From the NCBI GenBank assembly GCA_965202665.1, contig OZ241841.1, positions 2,240,001 through 2,304,000 of the forward strand: a stretch of 64,000 nucleotides of DNA, read 5' to 3'. The DNA comes from Candidatus Spongiisociaceae bacterium. GTDB taxonomy: Bacteria; Actinomycetota; Acidimicrobiia; Spongiisociales; Spongiisociaceae. Below are positions 19,793-34,840 of this stretch, in pieces. How positions within the stretch are numbered: position 1 is the first letter of the stretch; every line of letters begins with the position of its first letter. The notes beneath the pieces were generated by a model, which saw only the letters and a list, made by a program, of their open reading frames with translations, did no database searches and had not been told where the DNA came from. The translations under genes were made by a program, and so were the position numbers.

Positions 19793-19843
19793 AAAAAGGC
19801 GGGGCGGGGGAAAACCCCTGATTGCGCCCCCCGAACTTGGGAT

Positions 19844-20194
19844 TCAGACGCGGGTGGTCAGTTCATACTCCATGCCCCGGCGCCGGCACCACTCTTCGGC
19901 CGCGCTCCGTTTGCGCAGCACGGAAGGGGAGTCCATCTTGTCGGAGCCTTTGACTTCGATGATCGCCAAGCGCCCGTCGGCGTATTCCACCAAAAAGTCG
20001 GGCAGGTAACGATGGCGGCGGCCGTTTTCGTCGATCCAGGTGATGGAAACGTCGTGCCGTTTCTGCCATTTGGCCACTTCCGGGTCGGCTTCCAACCTTT
20101 CCATCATCCGCCGTTCCAAGTCGCTGTCGTAAAACTCCAGGTTGAACGGGCTTTTGCGGGGGGCTTCGAACACGCCCCGTTTACTGATCGCCAT
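19844..20194 (-). CDS. Stand-alone TnsA-N-like PD-(D/E)XK endonuclease
   Basis: YDSDLE...YLPDFLV...IIEVKG...K..AAEEWC...Y; overlaps the helicase stop by 14 nt. Confidence 0.85.
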   Translation of the reverse strand: MAISKRGVFEAPRKSPFNLEFYDSDLERRMMERLEADPEVAKWQKRHDVSITWIDENGRRHRYLPDFLVEYADGRLAIIEVKGSDKMDSPSVLRKRSAAEEWCRRRGMEYELTTRV

Positions 20195-22223
20195 ATTTCA
20201 CCATCCCTTCCACCAGGCCGGATTTTTCCGTGATCTGTTTTTCAACCAGGGGGATCATCCTCCGGGCGGCTTCCAGGCGGTGCCGTTCCGCCAGCCCCAA
20301 AGAAGCCCCGTCCAAGAACTGGGAGCGGACATGGCTGAGGAGAATCCGATATATTTGGCCGGTGAACTGGGCGGTGTGCCCGGCGTGGAGCAGCAAACTT
20401 TCCGCCATTTCCAACAGTTCGGTTTTTACGGCCTCCGCCAAATCCTCGTCCTCTAAATCGTCCAGAGCGTCCAAGGCCTCTAAAGCGTCTGTTACGGGAC
20501 CGGCCTGCTCCGGGTCGGGTGCGGATTTGACGGTGCGCCAGCCCTCCGAATCCAGTTGCCTTTCATCCACCCCGGTTATTTCCTGGTCGGTGATGGTGAT
20601 GGTCTGGGCCGGATATTCCAGCCCGTCCAGAACCTCCCGCCAGTTGCGCAACGGCTCGGGGATGGGGCTGTTGATATCCACGGTTATGTCTTCGTCGTCT
20701 TCAAAGTCGGGGACGGGGACGACGATGATGTTTTGCGGGTTGACCAGGTACTGGCGCATTCGGACCGTGGGCAGATCCTCGGTTTCTTCGAACTCATCGT
20801 CCAAACCCACGTTGTCCCGTATCGCGCTGTCGAAAATTTTCCACAGCCACTGATGTTCCAGTTTCGGATGGTCCACCACCGCGCAGATTTGCGGTTCGTC
20901 CTCCGCCACCTCGCGGTTGCGCACCCGTCGCAGGCCCCGGCCGATGACCTGTTGCCCGTACACTTTGCTGGAAAACTTGCGCAGGAGCAGAATAACCCCC
21001 ACCTCCGGCACGTCCCACCCTTCCCGCAACATCAGCACGCTCACCACCGCCTTATAAGGTTTCCCCGCCCGGCGGGCGTTTTGCAAGTCGGCGGCTTGGC
21101 GCCGTTCCGCGTCGCTGCTTTCCTCCGTAATCAGCAACGCGTTGACCTTGAAGTAGTTGTTGAGGGTTTTGGCGGCGTGTTGGGCGTCCAGTTTGCTCAC
21201 CGCCACCACGAACAAGATCGGCTGGTAACGGCCTTTCGCCCGCCGTTCCTGCTCTTTCAGGCGCCGGAGGGCGATCTGCATCTGCTGGCGCATCGGCTTG
21301 TCGTCGGTCACCCACTGCGCGGGGCTGATGCCTTTGCGTTCCACCTCCTCCCAGTCGATTTCCTCCACGCGGCGGGTTTCCCCGGTGTTGCGGTCGGTGT
21401 AGGTGAGTTCCACGGTGGCGATGTTCGGCTGATACACCACCGGGGTTTTCACCAGCCGGTCGGCCAGCGCGTCTTGGATTAGATATTCGTAGATCATTTT
21501 GCTGTCCGGCTGTCCGCCGTCCGCCCGGTCGGGGGTGGCGGTGGTGTCCACCCGCAGAATGATGTGCTCCCGCAGGGTTTGCAAAGTGTTGTCCCATTCC
21601 GGGGCGGGGGAGTTGTGGGCTTCGTCGTTGAACAGGGCGAACCGTTCGCCGTTGCGCAGGTGGGCCAGGTGGGCCTGCCCGGTTTTGCTACTGGCGTAGA
21701 ACTGGTGGATGTTGCCCAAAATGACCGTCGAACCCAGCAGGTTCGTCCACCCTCCCGGCCGGTCGCTGCCCAACGTGGTGAGGGCGAAGTCGTCCCGGTC
21801 GATGACCGAATCGGGCGGGATCAAATCCCGGTCCGCGAACACCCGTCCGTTCGCGAAGTCGTCTTCCAAGCGGTCCCGCACGATCAGGTTGGGGCACAGG
21901 AGGACGAACCGCTGAATGTCGTGGGCGGTGCGCAACCAGGCCATAATCGCCGCGATGACGGCCGTCTTGCCGCCTCCGGTCACCACGTTCAGCAGGAGGC
22001 CGTCCGGTTGCGCCAAATCGCCGCGGCGGATTTCATGGGAGAAGACGACCCGCAGCAGGGAATCCCACTGATGGGGCCACAGGGTTCCCTCCCGGGGTTC
22101 GGTTTCGTCAAGCGGGTCGCTCAGGTGGTGCAGGTAATCCAAAGTTTCCGGGCGGGCGCCGGGGTAGCCGCCTTTCACCCAGTTTTGAAACTCTTCTTCG
22201 TAACGGCTGAACTGGTTGAGCAT
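20181..22223 (-). CDS. Type III Res-like SF2 helicase lacking a nuclease domain
   Basis: VTGGGKT, NDEAH, TATPDR, MLREGWDV, QVIGRGLR; acidic C-terminal region without PD-(D/E)XK. Confidence 0.88.
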   Translation of the reverse strand: MLNQFSRYEEEFQNWVKGGYPGARPETLDYLHHLSDPLDETEPREGTLWPHQWDSLLRVVFSHEIRRGDLAQPDGLLLNVVTGGGKTAVIAAIMAWLRTAHDIQRFVLLCPNLIVRDRLEDDFANGRVFADRDLIPPDSVIDRDDFALTTLGSDRPGGWTNLLGSTVILGNIHQFYASSKTGQAHLAHLRNGERFALFNDEAHNSPAPEWDNTLQTLREHIILRVDTTATPDRADGGQPDSKMIYEYLIQDALADRLVKTPVVYQPNIATVELTYTDRNTGETRRVEEIDWEEVERKGISPAQWVTDDKPMRQQMQIALRRLKEQERRAKGRYQPILFVVAVSKLDAQHAAKTLNNYFKVNALLITEESSDAERRQAADLQNARRAGKPYKAVVSVLMLREGWDVPEVGVILLLRKFSSKVYGQQVIGRGLRRVRNREVAEDEPQICAVVDHPKLEHQWLWKIFDSAIRDNVGLDDEFEETEDLPTVRMRQYLVNPQNIIVVPVPDFEDDEDITVDINSPIPEPLRNWREVLDGLEYPAQTITITDQEITGVDERQLDSEGWRTVKSAPDPEQAGPVTDALEALDALDDLEDEDLAEAVKTELLEMAESLLLHAGHTAQFTGQIYRILLSHVRSQFLDGASLGLAERHRLEAARRMIPLVEKQITEKSGLVEGMVKYGDQ

Positions 22224-22235
22224 GGTTACGGCGTC

Positions 22236-24047
22236 CTACTGCACGTCCAGCGCGCCGGTCCACATGCCTTCGCCTCCCATGCTGTCTTGCACGCGACAGG
22301 CGACTTGGTAGCGGCGGGCTGTGTTGAACTTGTGGGTTACCCGCAGGGATTTCTTCTTGTCCCGTTGAAACGAATAACCGGGGGTGGCCGTGAAACGTTC
22401 CCCGTTGTGGTCGAAATCCCATTGCACGTTGATGATTTCCGCTCCCGGGTTGACCACCGCCGACTCGCTGGCGTCGAAGGTGACGCATTTGCCGCCCAGC
22501 GTTTTCCAGCCGACGCTCACCACCGGCGGCCGCACGAAAGTCAGAAAATCGCGATAGTCGGCCCGTTCGGTGGAATGCTTGGTGATGTGCGCCCGGAACC
22601 GGTCGTCGTCGATACTTATCTGGGCCAGGCTGACAAAGTTGACATCAATTTTTTCCCGTTCCCGCAGTTGTTTAGCCGCTTCCACCGCGTCGGGTCGAAA
22701 CCCCCAAGCCAGCATCTCCCCGTTACGCAAATGAGAATGTTTATACTGTTCGGTACGCAGAATGGCGTTGGCAAAATCCTGCACATCTTGGGCGGTAGCC
22801 TGGGAAACCAGTTCCGGCGAGCCGACCCAAATAGGCATTTGGTTGCGCCACCCGTGAATGTTCCCCGAATTTTCCCTCCGGGTAGCCCCGTAACAAGTAA
22901 GCGTAAACTCCCGAAAGTCACTTTCCGGTATCCCCGAAAGTTTTTCCGCCTCGTAGATACCCCATTGTTCTACTGTAAAATCAAGCCGCGGTTCTTCCCC
23001 AAGTTCCAAAGTCATAGACTCTTGTTTTAGTCTCTCAGCAGTAACCGCAATGGCAACCCGCGATTGGTCACAAGATATATAACGTCTCCCTAATTGTTGT
23101 GCAACAACAGCTGTAGTGCCGCCTCCTATGAAGGCATCAAGAACAACATCTCCTTTATAACTTGAAGATTTTATAATACGCTCTAACAGAGACTCAGGTT
23201 TTTGTGTCGGGTATCCAACCCTTTCTTTAGAGACATTTATTATAGGCTTTATGTTATCCCACACATCCCTGATATAAACGTCGGCATAATATTTACCTTC
23301 CTCATCAATTTGTTCAGTAAAAAAGGGCTGTTCGTAATAAATTCGCTCCTGAATAGGTTGATGAATGTAGTTATCAGATTTTACATATAATAGTAAAATA
23401 TCATGTTTACGAGGCCAGTGTCTTTTACTTACACCACCGGTTCTATATGTCCAAACAATCTCATTCCGAAAATTATCATGTCCGAATATCTTATCCATTT
23501 CAACTTTTATATAGTGACTAGCATGCCAATCGCAGTGTAAATATATAGATCCTGTAGACTTTAGTATCCGTTTCATTTCGTAGAGGCGGGCATTTAGCCA
23601 GATCAAATAACCATCCAGGCCACCTTCCCAGATGTCTTCGAACGACCTCAACTCGTTTTTGTCGCCCCATATCTTATTATAGTTACGCCCGGAGAAGAAG
23701 GGAGGATCTATGTAAATCAGGTCTACTGTGTTGCTGGGGATGGATCTCATTATATGTAGATTGTCGCCCCATATGAGGCGGTTCGGTTGGTGGGGCTCTC
23801 GATTGCCGAGATGCACCCGCTCTACAATTTGGGTGGGTAGGTCAATTCGGGGGTAGAGCCTGTAAAACCCCGAACGCCGGTCCCAGCCCTTGGGCTCTGC
23901 CTCCGGAGGGATGCTCCCAAAACGGGCGGGAGCCCGGTAGAACTGCTCTTGCTCGGGAAGCGTTTCTACCGTTACGTTGTTTTGCGATGAATAGGGGGGG
24001 GGGGTTGCATATTTGAATATTTTACCAAATCTGGGAAAAATTTCCAA
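22236..24047 (-). CDS. Type III Mod-like amino-methyltransferase (beta class); start uncertain (TTG 24047, or ATG 24010 via the poly-C tract)
   Basis: LIWGDNL, IYIDPPF, SIYLHCDWHASHY, YPTQKPESLLERII, DAFIGGGTT; C-terminal beta-sandwich-like tail. Confidence 0.92.
   Translation of the reverse strand: MEIFPRFGKIFKYATPPPYSSQNNVTVETLPEQEQFYRAPARFGSIPPEAEPKGWDRRSGFYRLYPRIDLPTQIVERVHLGNREPHQPNRLIWGDNLHIMRSIPSNTVDLIYIDPPFFSGRNYNKIWGDKNELRSFEDIWEGGLDGYLIWLNARLYEMKRILKSTGSIYLHCDWHASHYIKVEMDKIFGHDNFRNEIVWTYRTGGVSKRHWPRKHDILLLYVKSDNYIHQPIQERIYYEQPFFTEQIDEEGKYYADVYIRDVWDNIKPIINVSKERVGYPTQKPESLLERIIKSSSYKGDVVLDAFIGGGTTAVVAQQLGRRYISCDQSRVAIAVTAERLKQESMTLELGEEPRLDFTVEQWGIYEAEKLSGIPESDFREFTLTCYGATRRENSGNIHGWRNQMPIWVGSPELVSQATAQDVQDFANAILRTEQYKHSHLRNGEMLAWGFRPDAVEAAKQLREREKIDVNFVSLAQISIDDDRFRAHITKHSTERADYRDFLTFVRPPVVSVGWKTLGGKCVTFDASESAVVNPGAEIINVQWDFDHNGERFTATPGYSFQRDKKKSLRVTHKFNTARRYQVACRVQDSMGGEGMWTGALDVQ
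23994..24004. repeat. G11/C11 homopolymer at the 5' end of mod
   Basis: Minus strand reads ATG CAA C11 TAT TCA. Confidence 0.9.
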
Positions 24048-28093: not shown

Positions 28094-28950
28094 TGTACTT
28101 GGCCAGGACGTTGGTGACGGTTTGGTTGTTGCATAGGTGAAGACCTCCTGGTGTTATGGGGAGTTAAAACGCACCCTATAGCACGGGAGGAGGTCTTCAG
28201 GGATGCATGGTAACGCGAGGTCGTCGCCTTTGGGACGTTTGGGGATGGTGTTGCGGGTAATAGGAGAAGTGGAACCGGTAGCGCGGGTGGCTCGGCGGTG
28301 TGGGCCTGTCCCGGCAGTGCGTGTCCAAGTGGGTGCGCCGTTACCGGGAGGAAGGCGAGGCCCGGTTTGGAGGATCGGTCGCCTCGGCCGCGTTGTTCCC
28401 CTATGCGTACCAGCCCGGAGGTGGAAGAGCTAACTTCGTCCATACCGCCCGGCGGGGGATGGAAGGTACACGGCCGGGGCAACGCCCCCGCCGGGGGAGC
28501 GGGATGGACCTTTGTGCACTCCATAGTGGACGACTACACCCGCCTCGCCTACTCCGAGCCGTTACCGGACGAGAAAGGAACCACCGTCGCCGCGTTCACC
28601 GCCCGCGCCCTCGCCGCCTTCCGCCAAAAAGGCATCACCCACATTACCGAGATCATGACCGACAACCATTGGAGCTACACCCGCAGCCGCCTATTCGCCG
28701 CCCTGCTCGCCCAACACGACATCCGTCATATCACGATCAAACCCTATCATCCCCAGCAGAACGGCAAAGTAGAACGATACAACCAAACCCTCAAACGAGA
28801 ATGGGCCAACTCCCAACCCTGGCCCGACAACCAAGCCCGAAACCAAGCCCTCCACCACTGGCTCCACTACTACCACAACCACCGGCCCCACTACAGCCTC
28901 GGAGGCAAACCACCAACCTCCAGACTGTAACCAACCTATTGCCATGCACA
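28094..28950 (+). mobile_element. IS481-family element with a frameshifted, internally deleted transposase; 6-bp TSD GTTAGT
   Basis: TGT...ACA ends; VDDYTRLAYSE, MTDN, PQQNGKVERYNQTL, RPHYSLGGKPP; GTTAGT at 28088-28093 and 28951-28956. Confidence 0.95.
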
Positions 28951-30984: not shown

Positions 30985-31012
30985 TTGACAAATTGGGGGG
31001 GGGGGTTAGCGT
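30985..31012 (+). promoter_or_regulatory. Sigma70-type promoter TTGACA-16-TAGCGT with a G11 tract in the spacer
   Basis: TTGACA aatt G11 t TAGCGT upstream of the GAAGGAGG RBS of the large SLH gene. Confidence 0.7.
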
Positions 31013-31099: not shown

Positions 31100-34000
31100 A
31101 TGTCGGTTCGCGTGTCGGGGAAGGTTTGGCTTGTAGGATTGTTGGTGTTGGGTTTGACGGCGGGTTTGTTGGGTGCGGCTCCGCCGGGTGCGGTGGGGAC
31201 GCATGGGGATGATGCGGATGTGGATTATGAGCCATCGTATTCAGCCTGCGTGGGGGCGGCGACGGAGTCTTTCGGGTTTGAGGACACGGAAGGATCCTTC
31301 GCGGAGGAGGCCATAAATTGTTTGGCGCATTATGGGATCACGACGGGACGGTCGGCGACCATGTTTGCTCCCAATGATTCGGTGTTGCGGTGGCAGATGG
31401 CCCTGTTTTTGGCGAGGGCGGCCGCGGCGGCGGGGATCATGTTGGCGAACCCGGCCGCTGATCAGGGGTTTACGGATGTTGGGGCGGTGTCGGGGGAGGC
31501 CCGTAACGCCATCAACGGTTTGGCGGCGGCGGGAATAATGCCCGGTGTGTCGCAGACCACTTTCTCGCCGAATGCGTCGGTGACGCGCGGTTCCATGGCC
31601 ATGTTGCTGGACGCGTTTTTGGCGGCGGCGACGCCGGGGGCGGGGGCGTTTGGGGGGGAAATTGAGAAGTATTCGGATATAGAAGTGGATAATTACAATG
31701 TTTTCAACGATATCGATGGGGTGTCGTTGAATATTTATAATGCGATTTATCGGATTTATGAGGTGGGGGTGACGCAGGGGGTGGGTGATCATCAGTTCGG
31801 TCCGGGTCGTAACGTGACAAGGGCGCAGATGGCGGCCTTCATCACTCGGGCGTTTGCGCATACGGTGGCTCGTCCGGCGGGGGTGTCGATTCAGGCGGAG
31901 AAGGATTCGGTACTAGGCGAGTCGTCGGTGCAACTTATCGTGTCGGTGCGGGATGCGATGTTTCAGCCGGTGGTGGATGCGTCGGTGGATGTGTTCCGTT
32001 CCACCGACCCCGACAACGCTTTGAAAGACGACGGCACATGCGACACAGCCAGTGTTGGTCAGGTGGCTGGTATCGGCCGGGCGGCGTGTGAGGTGGATAC
32101 GGGGGATGAGACGACTGACGCGGCGGGGGATATCACATCCTTGCAGTTGCAGGTGTCGGATGCTGATGTGACGGTGTGGGCGTGGACCGGGGACCGGGCT
32201 GACAAGTTTGATTCCGATGACATCACCGCCGCCCAGCTGACCGTCGGTTTCTCCAAGGCGGCCAGCCAGTTGTTGGTTACTGACAATTTGGAGGAGGGGC
32301 AGACTCATTTGCAGTTTGGGGAGACGGCTACGTTGACGGTGCAGGTGGCTAATGAGGATGATGAGCCGGTGGCGGAGAAGGGGGTGCGGGTGAAGGTCGC
32401 CCAGGTTACTACTCCGGATGTGAGCAAGGCGACGGAGACCAACTCGTCCACCAACACCTATACCACGGACGCTACCGGCAAGTTTCAGTTGTCGTTCACC
32501 CAGACCGATCCCAGTTCCGGCGATGATGAGGACGCAACGGTGGTGGTCACTTTGAGTGAACCGTCCTCCTATTCCCTCCAGGATGAAGACGGCGAGGCAT
32601 TCACTGCCAAGACTTTCACCTGGTCGGACGAGGCGGGGATTCCCGCCAAGTTGGTGTTGGAAACCCGGCAGAAGTACGCCGAAGCGTCCGATGAGGGCCG
32701 GGGGGCGACGGCGGCGGTTACCGCCACTTTGACCGACCAGTTCGGCAACCCGCTGCGGGGCCAACGAATCCACTTCTGGTCGGATAATCCAGAGGGAGTG
32801 GGCGAGAAAGCAGAGGATTCCCTGCTGGACCAGGTGCGGGCCAGCCTCGCCACGATTGAACCTCGGGGAGCTTCTGAAAGCGGAAATGATTTCGCGGCGC
32901 GCGTTCGAGCATTCAACCGCCGCGTATGGTCCTTCTCCTACTCGGTGATCGATGATTTGCGGGGCGAGGCGCGGTTTTTCCGTACCACCAACCGGGCGGG
33001 ACAGGCCACTTTGTCTTACAACCGGGATGCGGCCACGGCGGTGGTGGAGACCGTGCGGGCCCGGTTGGTGCGGGGTGAGGATGACGCCCAACGAGTGGAC
33101 GATGACACGGAGGATTTGCTGAGCGAGCGGGTGGCGATCTACTGGATCAGCGAATTGGGCGAAGACGATTCGGCGGCGGGTCGGATTTTATTCAACGACG
33201 CCGACAATCGCCGGGTGGTGTTCGCCGACCGCGACGGTCGGGCGAGGATGATCGACTTTGACGCCAATGATCAGTTTAGTATCGGCGGGGCGCCGGTGCT
33301 TTTCTCCGATTTTGAGAAGTACCTGCGGGACACCGCGGGCCACATCACCGTGCTTTCCTATGCGGAAACTACGAGTGATGTGAGTTCGATCAACTTGGAG
33401 GCCGAGTGGCCGAAGGTGGACTTGTCCGATATTCCGGTCGCCGCACCTAGATGGTCCGAACTGAGTATTGGTCATATCCATTACGCCTCGGATGGGGGAA
33501 CCATCGTGGTCAGCTACTTCGCTCATAACAACTTTGCGGGAGCGGTATGGGTATACGACGGGGTGGACGACGCCGATCCGCAGATGCTGACCGCTCCTAC
33601 GCCGCAACCCTTTTCCGGGCCCGCCAACGGCAGGCCGTGGAGGGATGACGAGTTGCAGAAGGGGACTACCGGCGGATGGTTCGGTTTTGCGGTGGACATT
33701 CGCGGGGGCACTTTGGCGGTGGGCGAACCGGGCCGGCTTGACACCCGCACCGGCCACACCGACAAACCCAATGGCGCGGTTCATATTTTCACCAAAGGGA
33801 GCAACGGCTCGTGGGCCCATGACGCCACTTTGACTACGACCAACACCAGCAGCGGGTTGACCGCTTGGCCGGCGGACCGGGGCATGTTGCTGGGCCGGGC
33901 GGTGGCCGTTTCCAAAAACGAGACGGTGGTGGCGGCTTCCGCCCCGAGGTTCCACGGCGCCGCCCATCGCATTTCCGGGGTGTACCTGTTTACCCGGCCC

Positions 34001-34840
34001 GACCAGGCCGGCCGCGCCGCGGGCGACAAATGGGCTGACCAGGACGGTTCCGCTTCCCCCCGGCTGCAGTTGTCCCCTACCGTGTCCAACGCCAATCAGA
34101 ACCGATGGGCCAGGGTGGCCTATGACCGAAATTTGGCGATCTCGGAGGACGGAACCACCGTGGTGGTGGGCGGCGCGGAAGGCAGTTTCGGCAGGGTGGT
34201 AAACGGCATTAAGTACGACGATGCGGGAGCGGCCTTTGTGTTTACCAGGCCCGGCGCGGCGTGGAGCACCGCGGCCGATACCTACCAGGACGCCATGTTC
34301 TACTCACCGGCTCCTTTCACGGCGGAGAAGCTGGGGAGGTCGGTGGCGGTGTCCGCCAACGGGGACACCATCGTGGTCGGGGATAACTACCGGCCCAACC
34401 TCTTGCGGCGCGGCAAGGTGCTGGTGTACGCGCGCCCCGACCAGGCCGGCCGGTCCGCCGGCGACCAGTGGGAGGACGAACCGGAGCCGACCGCCGTCTT
34501 AGCGGGGCCGGATCACCCGGACGCCCCTGACAGTTGCCCGCCGGCCGGGGCGTTTAGGGTTTGCAACTTGGGGGATACGTTCGGGCAGTGGGTGGACATC
34601 ACCGATGACGGGATGACGATTTTGGCTTCCCGTTCTACCCGGGCGGAAGACTATCAGCGGGGTTCGATCCATGTGTTCGCCAAGCCCGCGTCCGGCTGGT
34701 CGTCGTCCGTGACCGGGGTTGAATATCAGGGGAGCGGGCCGGGATCGGAGTTCGGATGGCGCAACCATTTCGATCAGGCCAACGGCAACATCGTGGCGTT
34801 GGAGAGCGAGCCGGTAACCATCTACCAGATAAAGCGGTAG
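31100..34840 (+). CDS. Large surface protein: signal peptide, SLH repeats, Ig-like domains, FG-GAP-type beta-propeller
   Basis: RWQMALFL, VTRGSMA, VTRAQMAAF; LTDQFGNPL and TTDATGK Big-like motifs; FGFAVDI, LGRSVAVS, GAAFVF repeats. Confidence 0.85.
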   Translation: MSVRVSGKVWLVGLLVLGLTAGLLGAAPPGAVGTHGDDADVDYEPSYSACVGAATESFGFEDTEGSFAEEAINCLAHYGITTGRSATMFAPNDSVLRWQMALFLARAAAAAGIMLANPAADQGFTDVGAVSGEARNAINGLAAAGIMPGVSQTTFSPNASVTRGSMAMLLDAFLAAATPGAGAFGGEIEKYSDIEVDNYNVFNDIDGVSLNIYNAIYRIYEVGVTQGVGDHQFGPGRNVTRAQMAAFITRAFAHTVARPAGVSIQAEKDSVLGESSVQLIVSVRDAMFQPVVDASVDVFRSTDPDNALKDDGTCDTASVGQVAGIGRAACEVDTGDETTDAAGDITSLQLQVSDADVTVWAWTGDRADKFDSDDITAAQLTVGFSKAASQLLVTDNLEEGQTHLQFGETATLTVQVANEDDEPVAEKGVRVKVAQVTTPDVSKATETNSSTNTYTTDATGKFQLSFTQTDPSSGDDEDATVVVTLSEPSSYSLQDEDGEAFTAKTFTWSDEAGIPAKLVLETRQKYAEASDEGRGATAAVTATLTDQFGNPLRGQRIHFWSDNPEGVGEKAEDSLLDQVRASLATIEPRGASESGNDFAARVRAFNRRVWSFSYSVIDDLRGEARFFRTTNRAGQATLSYNRDAATAVVETVRARLVRGEDDAQRVDDDTEDLLSERVAIYWISELGEDDSAAGRILFNDADNRRVVFADRDGRARMIDFDANDQFSIGGAPVLFSDFEKYLRDTAGHITVLSYAETTSDVSSINLEAEWPKVDLSDIPVAAPRWSELSIGHIHYASDGGTIVVSYFAHNNFAGAVWVYDGVDDADPQMLTAPTPQPFSGPANGRPWRDDELQKGTTGGWFGFAVDIRGGTLAVGEPGRLDTRTGHTDKPNGAVHIFTKGSNGSWAHDATLTTTNTSSGLTAWPADRGMLLGRAVAVSKNETVVAASAPRFHGAAHRISGVYLFTRPDQAGRAAGDKWADQDGSASPRLQLSPTVSNANQNRWARVAYDRNLAISEDGTTVVVGGAEGSFGRVVNGIKYDDAGAAFVFTRPGAAWSTAADTYQDAMFYSPAPFTAEKLGRSVAVSANGDTIVVGDNYRPNLLRRGKVLVYARPDQAGRSAGDQWEDEPEPTAVLAGPDHPDAPDSCPPAGAFRVCNLGDTFGQWVDITDDGMTILASRSTRAEDYQRGSIHVFAKPASGWSSSVTGVEYQGSGPGSEFGWRNHFDQANGNIVALESEPVTIYQIKR

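Follow-up and report, generated by a model that had tools for sequence, protein, structure and literature searches.

Can the nuclease of a Type III-like restriction-modification (R-M) system be a protein of its own, and how would it then be held on its motor? This question is raised by a locus in a stretch of 64,000 nucleotides (64 kb) from Candidatus Spongiisociaceae bacterium (contig OZ241841.1), hereafter the window, to which all positions refer unless stated otherwise. Canonical Type III Res proteins carry helicase and nuclease in one chain, as a preliminary description of the locus pointed out and as is the case for EcoP15I, whose nuclease occupies residues 729-966 within Res. In the window, three minus-strand open reading frames (ORFs) lie in a row and encode a Mod-type methyltransferase, a Res-type superfamily 2 (SF2) helicase and a separate nuclease of 116 aa. 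We consider it fairly probable that these genes form a Type III-like R-M system whose separate cutter is predicted to sit on the motor, with a tract of eleven C's (C11) as its likely on/off switch. The genome of the window is called G000, and the other system-bearing genomes of its clade G001 to G004.

ORF and motif analysis confirmed the operon as the preliminary description had read it, including the DPPF and FxGxG motifs of Mod. The longest mod frame (22236..24047, minus strand), annotated from a TTG at 24047, carries DPPF, a variable target recognition domain (TRD) and DAFIGGG, matching the pattern FxGGG, and encodes a beta-class N6/N4 amino-methyltransferase (N6_N4_Mtase, PF01555, E 5e-45) with a weak PKD-like tail. 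The helicase/ATPase (680 aa, 20181..22223, minus strand) contains GGGKT, DEAH and QVIGRGLRR and matched ResIII (E 2e-16); GGGKT, DEAH and QxxGRxxR are conserved in 39 aligned helicases. The nuclease (19844..20194, minus strand) is a PD-(D/E)XK protein with the TnsA N-terminal fold (E27, P65-D66, E80-x-K82; motif YLPDF...IEVKG) and matched Tn7_TnsA-like_N (PF08722, E 1e-14). A profile of 100 family nucleases detected no nuclease remnant in 103 split helicases (best E=0.02) and gave E=0.34 on the window helicase, in agreement with the earlier claim that this protein lacks a nuclease motif. At the helicase-nuclease junction, the 14-nt overlap, the AAGGGA resembling a ribosome binding site and the TGA two codons upstream of the nuclease ATG were all found as described. 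No indel interrupts the junction in public contigs X2 and X5, which read across it, so that the fusing indel for which the preliminary description had referred to the reads was not seen; contig X4 has an in-frame 6-nt insertion inside the nuclease.

The architecture of related loci was scored in 150 of the 155 loci fetched (five short overlaps were excluded, and the metagenome set consisted of the best 80 of 573). At a helicase identity of at least 33% (115 loci), 106 loci were split, none was fused and nine were unassigned, whereas below 33% (35 loci) 30 were fused, none was split and five were unassigned. In two of the nine unassigned close loci the nuclease stands behind a broken helicase, five stop at or near a contig end, one has a truncated helicase and one (L092) has no detected nuclease. 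The same three-gene order is thus present in other genomes of many phyla, and the preliminary description had allowed that close homologues might all be fused Res proteins, which none of the 115 is. A separate nuclease was found in 25 of 25 genome loci, labelled as Actinomycetota, Chloroflexota, Armatimonadota, Planctomycetota, Alphaproteobacteria, Verrucomicrobiota, Nitrospirota, Cyanobacteriota and Binatia. The best 120 of 2591 helicase matches measured 653-680 aa, with lengths searched up to 1190, and the best 120 of 307 nuclease matches 114-124 aa. In a FastTree helicase tree that gave long-branch warnings, a branch with support 100 set 56 split helicases, a subset of the split rows, apart from 26 fused Res. 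These counts support the view that the three-gene Type III-like arrangement, with its stand-alone PD-(D/E)XK nuclease, is real and conserved. A search for close fused forms, in itself weak evidence, gave one match among 126 long candidates, an apparent frameshift artefact.

Among 102 distinct loci (four duplicates removed), the nuclease lay in the +1 frame relative to the helicase in 84, in +2 in 15 and in the same frame in three, the same-frame cases standing behind a stop (one of the three is doubtful), and several loci had no overlap. Since the junctions occupy all three frames, the split is neither an error nor the product of programmed frameshifting, and is an ancient trait of the family. 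A programmed +1 frameshift joining helicase and nuclease into a canonical Res chain would agree with the 26 closest genome loci, where the nuclease is always in +1 with an overlap of 11-23 nt. On the other hand, no conserved slippery word was found, the helicase continues for about 175 residues beyond the predicted docking site, and the nuclease ATG is kept in 26 of 26 loci, spelled TAT-G or CAT-G in the helicase tail and never TAC or CAC. This retention and the junction pattern indicate translational coupling rather than frameshifting, which makes a programmed frameshift very improbable. The preliminary description had argued from the upstream TGA against a frameshift split. Its conclusion holds because of the comparative data and not because of the TGA, which occurs at that position in only 13 of the 26 loci and is insufficient alone, since a 1-nt change within the 17 nt before the helicase stop still fuses the genes. 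An assembly error or a recent frameshift in a fused res gene could be argued from a 427-aa database protein (P0244) that joins helicase and nuclease pieces, but these pieces are separated by an unrelated, out-of-frame-looking stretch, and the indel-free public contigs together with the absence of close fused loci reduce this explanation to a negligible one.

The nuclease looks active judging from its residues: E27, W43, P65, D66, E80, K82 and K95 show no change in any of 100 nucleases (three short or broken rows dropped). It is under purifying selection (nonsynonymous divergence, dN, 0.116 and synonymous divergence, dS, 0.687 against locus L003). Its model had a predicted local distance difference test score (pLDDT) of 92.6, and the best fold match was TnsA (1T0F, template modelling score 0.77, E 1e-5). 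As the preliminary description had proposed, helicase and nuclease were modelled together, and the model supported binding, with a score of 0.77 compared with 0.01 for the best of three controls, a contact agreement of at least 78% and a partner pLDDT of at least 81. The mark used for this score was reached by 116 of 157 solved pairs and two of 215 mismatched pairs, and it applies only roughly here since custom-built alignments were used. Halves of a split gene can also pass such a test through likeness to solved structures, which is doubtful in this case because the EcoP15I nuclease is disordered in the structure (PMC4490356, in part) and the similarity is marginal.

In the model the nuclease is predicted to bind the helicase at a linker after RecA2, residues 489-507 (20703..20759, minus strand; Q-x-L-x-x-P-x-x-x-I-x-x-P), with further helicase contacts at 1-9, 232-250 and 462-465 and nuclease contacts at 13-21, 42-50 and 68-70. 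The linker is conserved among 103 helicases (Q491 in 90, P496 in 91, I500 in 89 and P503 in 91), fading in the deepest branch. Docking on an acidic helicase tail, as suggested previously, was ruled out: the predicted interface lies elsewhere, the last 80 residues are neutral, and the acidic run at about 570-600 is due to 11 inserted residues that, among the 39 aligned, only the window helicase has. It is the region around the linker, residues 470-520, that is acidic throughout the family. Nor did the idea of an exchangeable effector find support, because nuclease and helicase co-diverge: their identities correlated over 91 loci with a rho of 0.87, a descriptive value since kin are not independent, and the nearest neighbour of the helicase was within the top five for the nuclease in 74 of the 91.

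The Mod protein ties the operon to Type III systems. DPPF was found in 60 and the FxGGG motif in 61 of 62 aligned Mods, in the order DPPY/F, TRD, FxGxG. Since Mod is homologous almost end to end to the Mods beside fused Res (at L127 the profile matched 65-600 of 601, E 2e-93), a Type III ancestry of the operon is supported. Its C-terminal region of about 260 aa (22236-23010, minus strand), conserved and with the PKD-like domain at its end, is shared by split and many fused systems and belongs to no named family; an atlas search with this region gave only unnamed clusters, under 0.9. The short TRD (residues 201-275; 23223..23447, minus strand) is a low-GC stretch with 25-38% identity among seven close relatives, compared with 71-88% in the methyltransferase flanks. 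In public run X4, depth over the TRD was about 57 where it had been 162, and a second contig leaves out 23087-23451, pointing to several TRD alleles within one sample. DPPY/F is found also in N4-methylcytosine (m4C) Type III Mods (PMC8259958, in part), and the modified base may be N6-methyladenine (m6A) or m4C, between which DPPF does not decide.

Homology of the nuclease to Res tails is clear: with hhalign it reached 98.5% against the tail of P0333, a Res of 906 aa. In the PADLOC comparison proposed in the preliminary description, helicase and nuclease matched the front and the tail of fused REase_III (PDLC03648), the nuclease at 741-826 of 871, and the same arrangement was obtained with NCBIfam BPTD_3080 (NF046055), where the nuclease matched 845-940 of 970. 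A profile search of 1.84 billion representatives gave, beyond the family, mostly free-standing TnsA-type nucleases or ones associated with helix-turn-helix (HTH), NUMOD or intein sequences; 37 of the top 150 were annotated, among them one full Res. TnsA-type nucleases scored 63-105 bits, Res tails from the fetched loci 11-53 and P0333 72. The TnsA-type matches resemble phage head-closure and endonuclease families, and the window nuclease matched phrog_218 with E 7e-15. Grouping with the seven nearest Res tails was rejected by an approximately unbiased (AU) test (p 0.027), a weak result in that the group was named after viewing the tree and eight rows were dropped; the tree itself has only 122 columns and three groups and is unrootable. 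By sequence we lean towards a recruited TnsA/phage-type nuclease, which the gene may represent rather than a cut-off Res tail; fission of Res and replacement by a recruited nuclease are both possible. The designation "TnsA-like" given earlier applies to the fold alone: the genes stand in no transposon setting, and conserved tnsB or tnsC neighbours do not occur. A role in a Tn7 transposon was ruled out by the missing C-terminal half of TnsA and the lack of conserved neighbours, none being present in more than 5 of 102 loci.

A sigma-70 promoter, TTGGAA-17-TAAAAT with TG preceding the -10 (9/12 match), is predicted at 24019..24047 (minus strand), although promoter-type sites in the region (six compared with 2.2 expected) make it modest evidence alone. 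Its -35 hexamer begins with the TTG at 24047 and its -10 ends 8 nt before an ATG at 24010, and the mod mRNA therefore probably has no leader or a very short one. This ATG is followed by CAA and the C11 tract (together 23994..24010, minus strand; tract 23994-24004), out of frame with mod as assembled, which is probably a phase-OFF state, and lies 17 codons before the conserved LP-QE motif, like the start in tract-free relatives. Since the TTG at 24047 forms the first three bases of the predicted -35 hexamer, the ATG at 24010 is probably the true start. An ATG with a tract stands at the equivalent place in G004 (C11), G002 (C13), G003 (C11) and G001 (C12), in otherwise different sequence, so that tract length differs between species. 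All five clade copies are out of frame as assembled, a result with a chance probability of 0.13 that shows no OFF bias, and the other 61 scorable loci have no C/G run of at least 7 nt at the mod start.

The lengths of C/G runs in G000 have a bimodal distribution, with 96 runs of 8 nt, one of 9, none of 10 and 75 of at least 11, and six of its 15 N6/N4 methyltransferase genes have a tract less than 600 nt upstream (chance 1.5% each, P 5e-8). Alternative in-frame starts exist in G000 and G004 (TTG) and in G003 (GTG), and none in G001 and G002; under either start the coding tract would toggle mod. A mononucleotide tract of at least 9 nt in the mod frame, by which phase-variable mod genes are recognized in a REBASE survey that counted such repeats in 17.4% of mod genes (PMC5909438, in part), is present as C11. 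These observations suggest that the C11 tract likely switches the system on and off in this lineage.

Long tracts also accompany other genes of this genome. Of the 75 long C/G runs of G000, 24 fall in the spacer of a recurring promoter-like motif (TTGACA...G11-13...TAGCGT-like, spacer 15-17 nt), including one at 30985-31012 (plus strand), mostly 5' of ORFs of 1200-4500 aa. Four of four scanned downstream ORFs carry SLH domains, among them 31100-34837 (SLH, FG-GAP, Ig-like), so promoter-spacer phase variation of a surface-protein family is probable. A strict pattern of this motif occurs at 21 sites in G000, 34 in G004, two in G002 and none in the other 26 genomes of the family. Further defence-type genes with 5' poly-C/G in G000 encode an HsdS domain, a NOV_C protein, a DUF1156 protein and several N6/N4 methyltransferases (G000:C1 at 1870408, 1927360, 2606199, 2758626, 598959, 2444737 and 42301). 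The only other match to the nuclease profile in G000 (C1:2439625-2439864, minus strand) is the tail of a 979-aa frame near a methyltransferase with a C13 tract, so that this cell probably has a canonical fused Type III system as well.

By analogy with EcoP15I (PMC4490356, PMC3333885, PMC6158743 and PMC12707154, all in part), a Mod dimer would read a short asymmetric site through its TRD and methylate one strand. At an unmethylated site the helicase would hydrolyse ATP and the complex would slide along the DNA until two complexes from inverted sites met, each bound nuclease nicking one strand. The overlapping stop and start would couple translation of helicase and nuclease. With mod out of frame, the cell would contain motor and cutter; this OFF state would be harmless because the site-recognising subunit is missing, and slippage of the tract would produce a minority of ON cells.

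Several results weigh against this reading. The NCBIfam cut-offs for Type III proteins were missed by far (NF046055, 73 compared with 800 bits; PRK15483, 24 compared with 564), and similarity to EcoP15I Res is limited to 48 residues (E 1.6e-5); since it is marginal, a sliding-type action is an extrapolation. The helicase model was poor (predicted template modelling score, pTM, 0.46), and a fold search with it was uninformative, giving generic SF2 matches only. At L092 mod and helicase are present and the nuclease was not found at the locus, and the nuclease of the system is nearer to free-standing TnsA/phage-type nucleases than to Res tails. As to the switch, three of three public runs spanning the tract showed no length change, although contigs drop minor variants and one of the three may be the source of the assembly, and the copies of G000, G004 and G003 could be ON through their TTG or GTG.

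The same parts could also build an ATP-dependent enzyme that translocates or acts locally, after the manner of Type I/ISP or CglI, and that takes up the free nuclease only once its complex of Mod and helicase has been activated. A separate nuclease gene and the weak similarity to EcoP15I Res would agree with such a mode, and so would the three-gene CglI and NgoAVII systems, in which the helicase is complexed with the nuclease and ATP must be hydrolysed extensively (PMC4267653, in part). But the closest kin of Mod and helicase are in fused-Res Type III operons, a recognition domain would not fit into so small a nuclease, and genes that overlap or abut suggest that the products are made in matched amounts and form a stable complex, so this mode is unlikely. 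Less likely still is that the locus works mainly as an epigenetic switch (phasevarion), the phase-variable Mod altering gene expression and restriction being secondary or lost. The tract directly behind the ATG in all five clade genomes (C11-13) and the many tract-linked surface-protein and R-M genes of the genome would fit this view, whereas the intact state of helicase and nuclease, the invariance of the catalytic residues and the purifying selection speak against it, as do the 61 other scorable loci, which have no C/G tract; both roles are also compatible. A Type III-like R-M system with a separate cutter on its motor therefore remains our preferred reading.

The host is likely a sponge-associated actinobacterium, since L003, with 80% helicase identity, belongs to Ca. 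Spongiisociaceae and several public runs that carry the system are sponge metagenomes. Within the family of the window the system was found in five of 29 genomes, all within two genera, lying in G004 at the same site as in the window and in G001-G003 at another. Among 72,556 plasmid records there was one distant match and none from the split family. The split cassette also occurs in six of 41 loci from a viral collection (L115-L120), viral by collection label only. Clustering of neighbours revealed neither a conserved fourth gene nor a defence island. The mod and helicase genes stand 0.3-2 kb apart, in some cases with an ORF inserted, at L002, L004, L015, L052, L066, L067, L092, L094, L100, L111, L113 and L114, so this site seems tolerant of insertions. 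Less than 5 kb upstream of mod the window encodes an HNH-tailed protein (PF01844; 24923-26287, minus strand) and a transposase-like remnant (28298-28930, plus strand), which we take, by its motifs, to be IS481-like. A terminator-like hairpin with a T run lies at the operon end (19801..19818, minus strand); four hairpin-type sites were found compared with 6.8 expected, and only its position is suggestive.

Literature searches on split Res, on TnsA-like proteins with R-M and on phase variation returned no description of this architecture, in line with the preliminary description, which had called it undescribed; the searches covered sources other than subscription papers and the supplements of PMC5909438 and PMC8259958, which could list members. 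The term "TnsA" has 0 occurrences in PMC12839542 and in PMC12707154. Since annotation pipelines label the parts "DEAD/DEAH helicase" and "TnsA endonuclease", a family present in about nine phylum-level groups has probably been missed or miscounted in defence surveys. The EcoP15I nuclease is disordered in the crystal, and how ATP-driven sliding licenses cutting is an open question; a cutter that is naturally a protein of its own, of 116 aa, can be titrated, swapped or omitted and gives direct access to the contact between motor and nuclease. With its poly-C tract the locus points to an environmental symbiont whose R-M varies in phase as it does in pathogens. It is conceivable, if doubtful, that this is an undescribed subtype of ATP-dependent restriction, in which the nuclease of an ancestral Type III motor was lost and a mini-nuclease of TnsA/phage type was recruited onto the linker, making scanning and cutting separable and dosable, and that in sponge-associated Acidimicrobiia the module belongs to a set of about 75 poly-C/G contingency loci by which defence and surface genes are randomised.

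By the features of its sequence the system is filed as a variant of Type III R-M. It has a beta-class amino-methyltransferase, a variable central TRD and an adjacent SF2 helicase, and it is not a canonical member because the nuclease is not in the C-terminal part of the Res chain. With EcoP15I and EcoP1I (Mod2Res1; PDB 4ZCF) it shares a beta-class Mod whose TRD lies between motifs IV and I, an adjacent SF2 motor that has an insert between its RecA lobes and a helical C-terminal part, and the PD-(D/E)XK cutter encoded last. It differs from EcoP15I in the short TRD and PKD-like tail of Mod, in the marginal similarity of Res and in the separate nuclease product. A split at that point is plausible because the EcoP15I nuclease is a separable domain on a flexible linker (PMC4490356, in part). 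Phase-variable mod systems likewise have a tract of at least 9 nt in mod, variable TRD alleles and a host-associated bacterium; here the poly-C stands right behind the start codon of a split-Res system in an uncultured, probably sponge-associated actinobacterium, and switching is proposed from sequence.

The nuclease has the fold and catalytic layout of the TnsA N-terminal domain (PF08722; PDB 1T0F, 1F1Z) and of the phage head-closure/endonuclease families phrog_218 and phrog_15427. Unlike TnsA, with chains of about 260 aa, it has 116 aa and lacks the C-terminal half, and in place of tnsB/tnsC or phage neighbours it is bound in context to mod and helicase. The profiles of the fused-Res groups PDLC03648 and BPTD_3080 are each matched at the front by the helicase and at the tail by the nuclease, and the Mods beside them are homologous nearly end to end, whereas their Res proteins are single chains of 850-1350 aa with less than 33% identity, and their nuclease tails are not the closest kin of the window nuclease. 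CglI and NgoAVII likewise consist of a methyltransferase, a separate helicase and a separate nuclease and cut in an ATP-dependent manner, but they use a 5-methylcytosine methyltransferase and a phospholipase D (PLD)-type nuclease with its own DNA-recognition domain, whereas the system analyzed here has an N6/N4 amino-methyltransferase of the Mod type with a variable TRD, a PD-(D/E)XK nuclease and a predicted complex between nuclease and motor.

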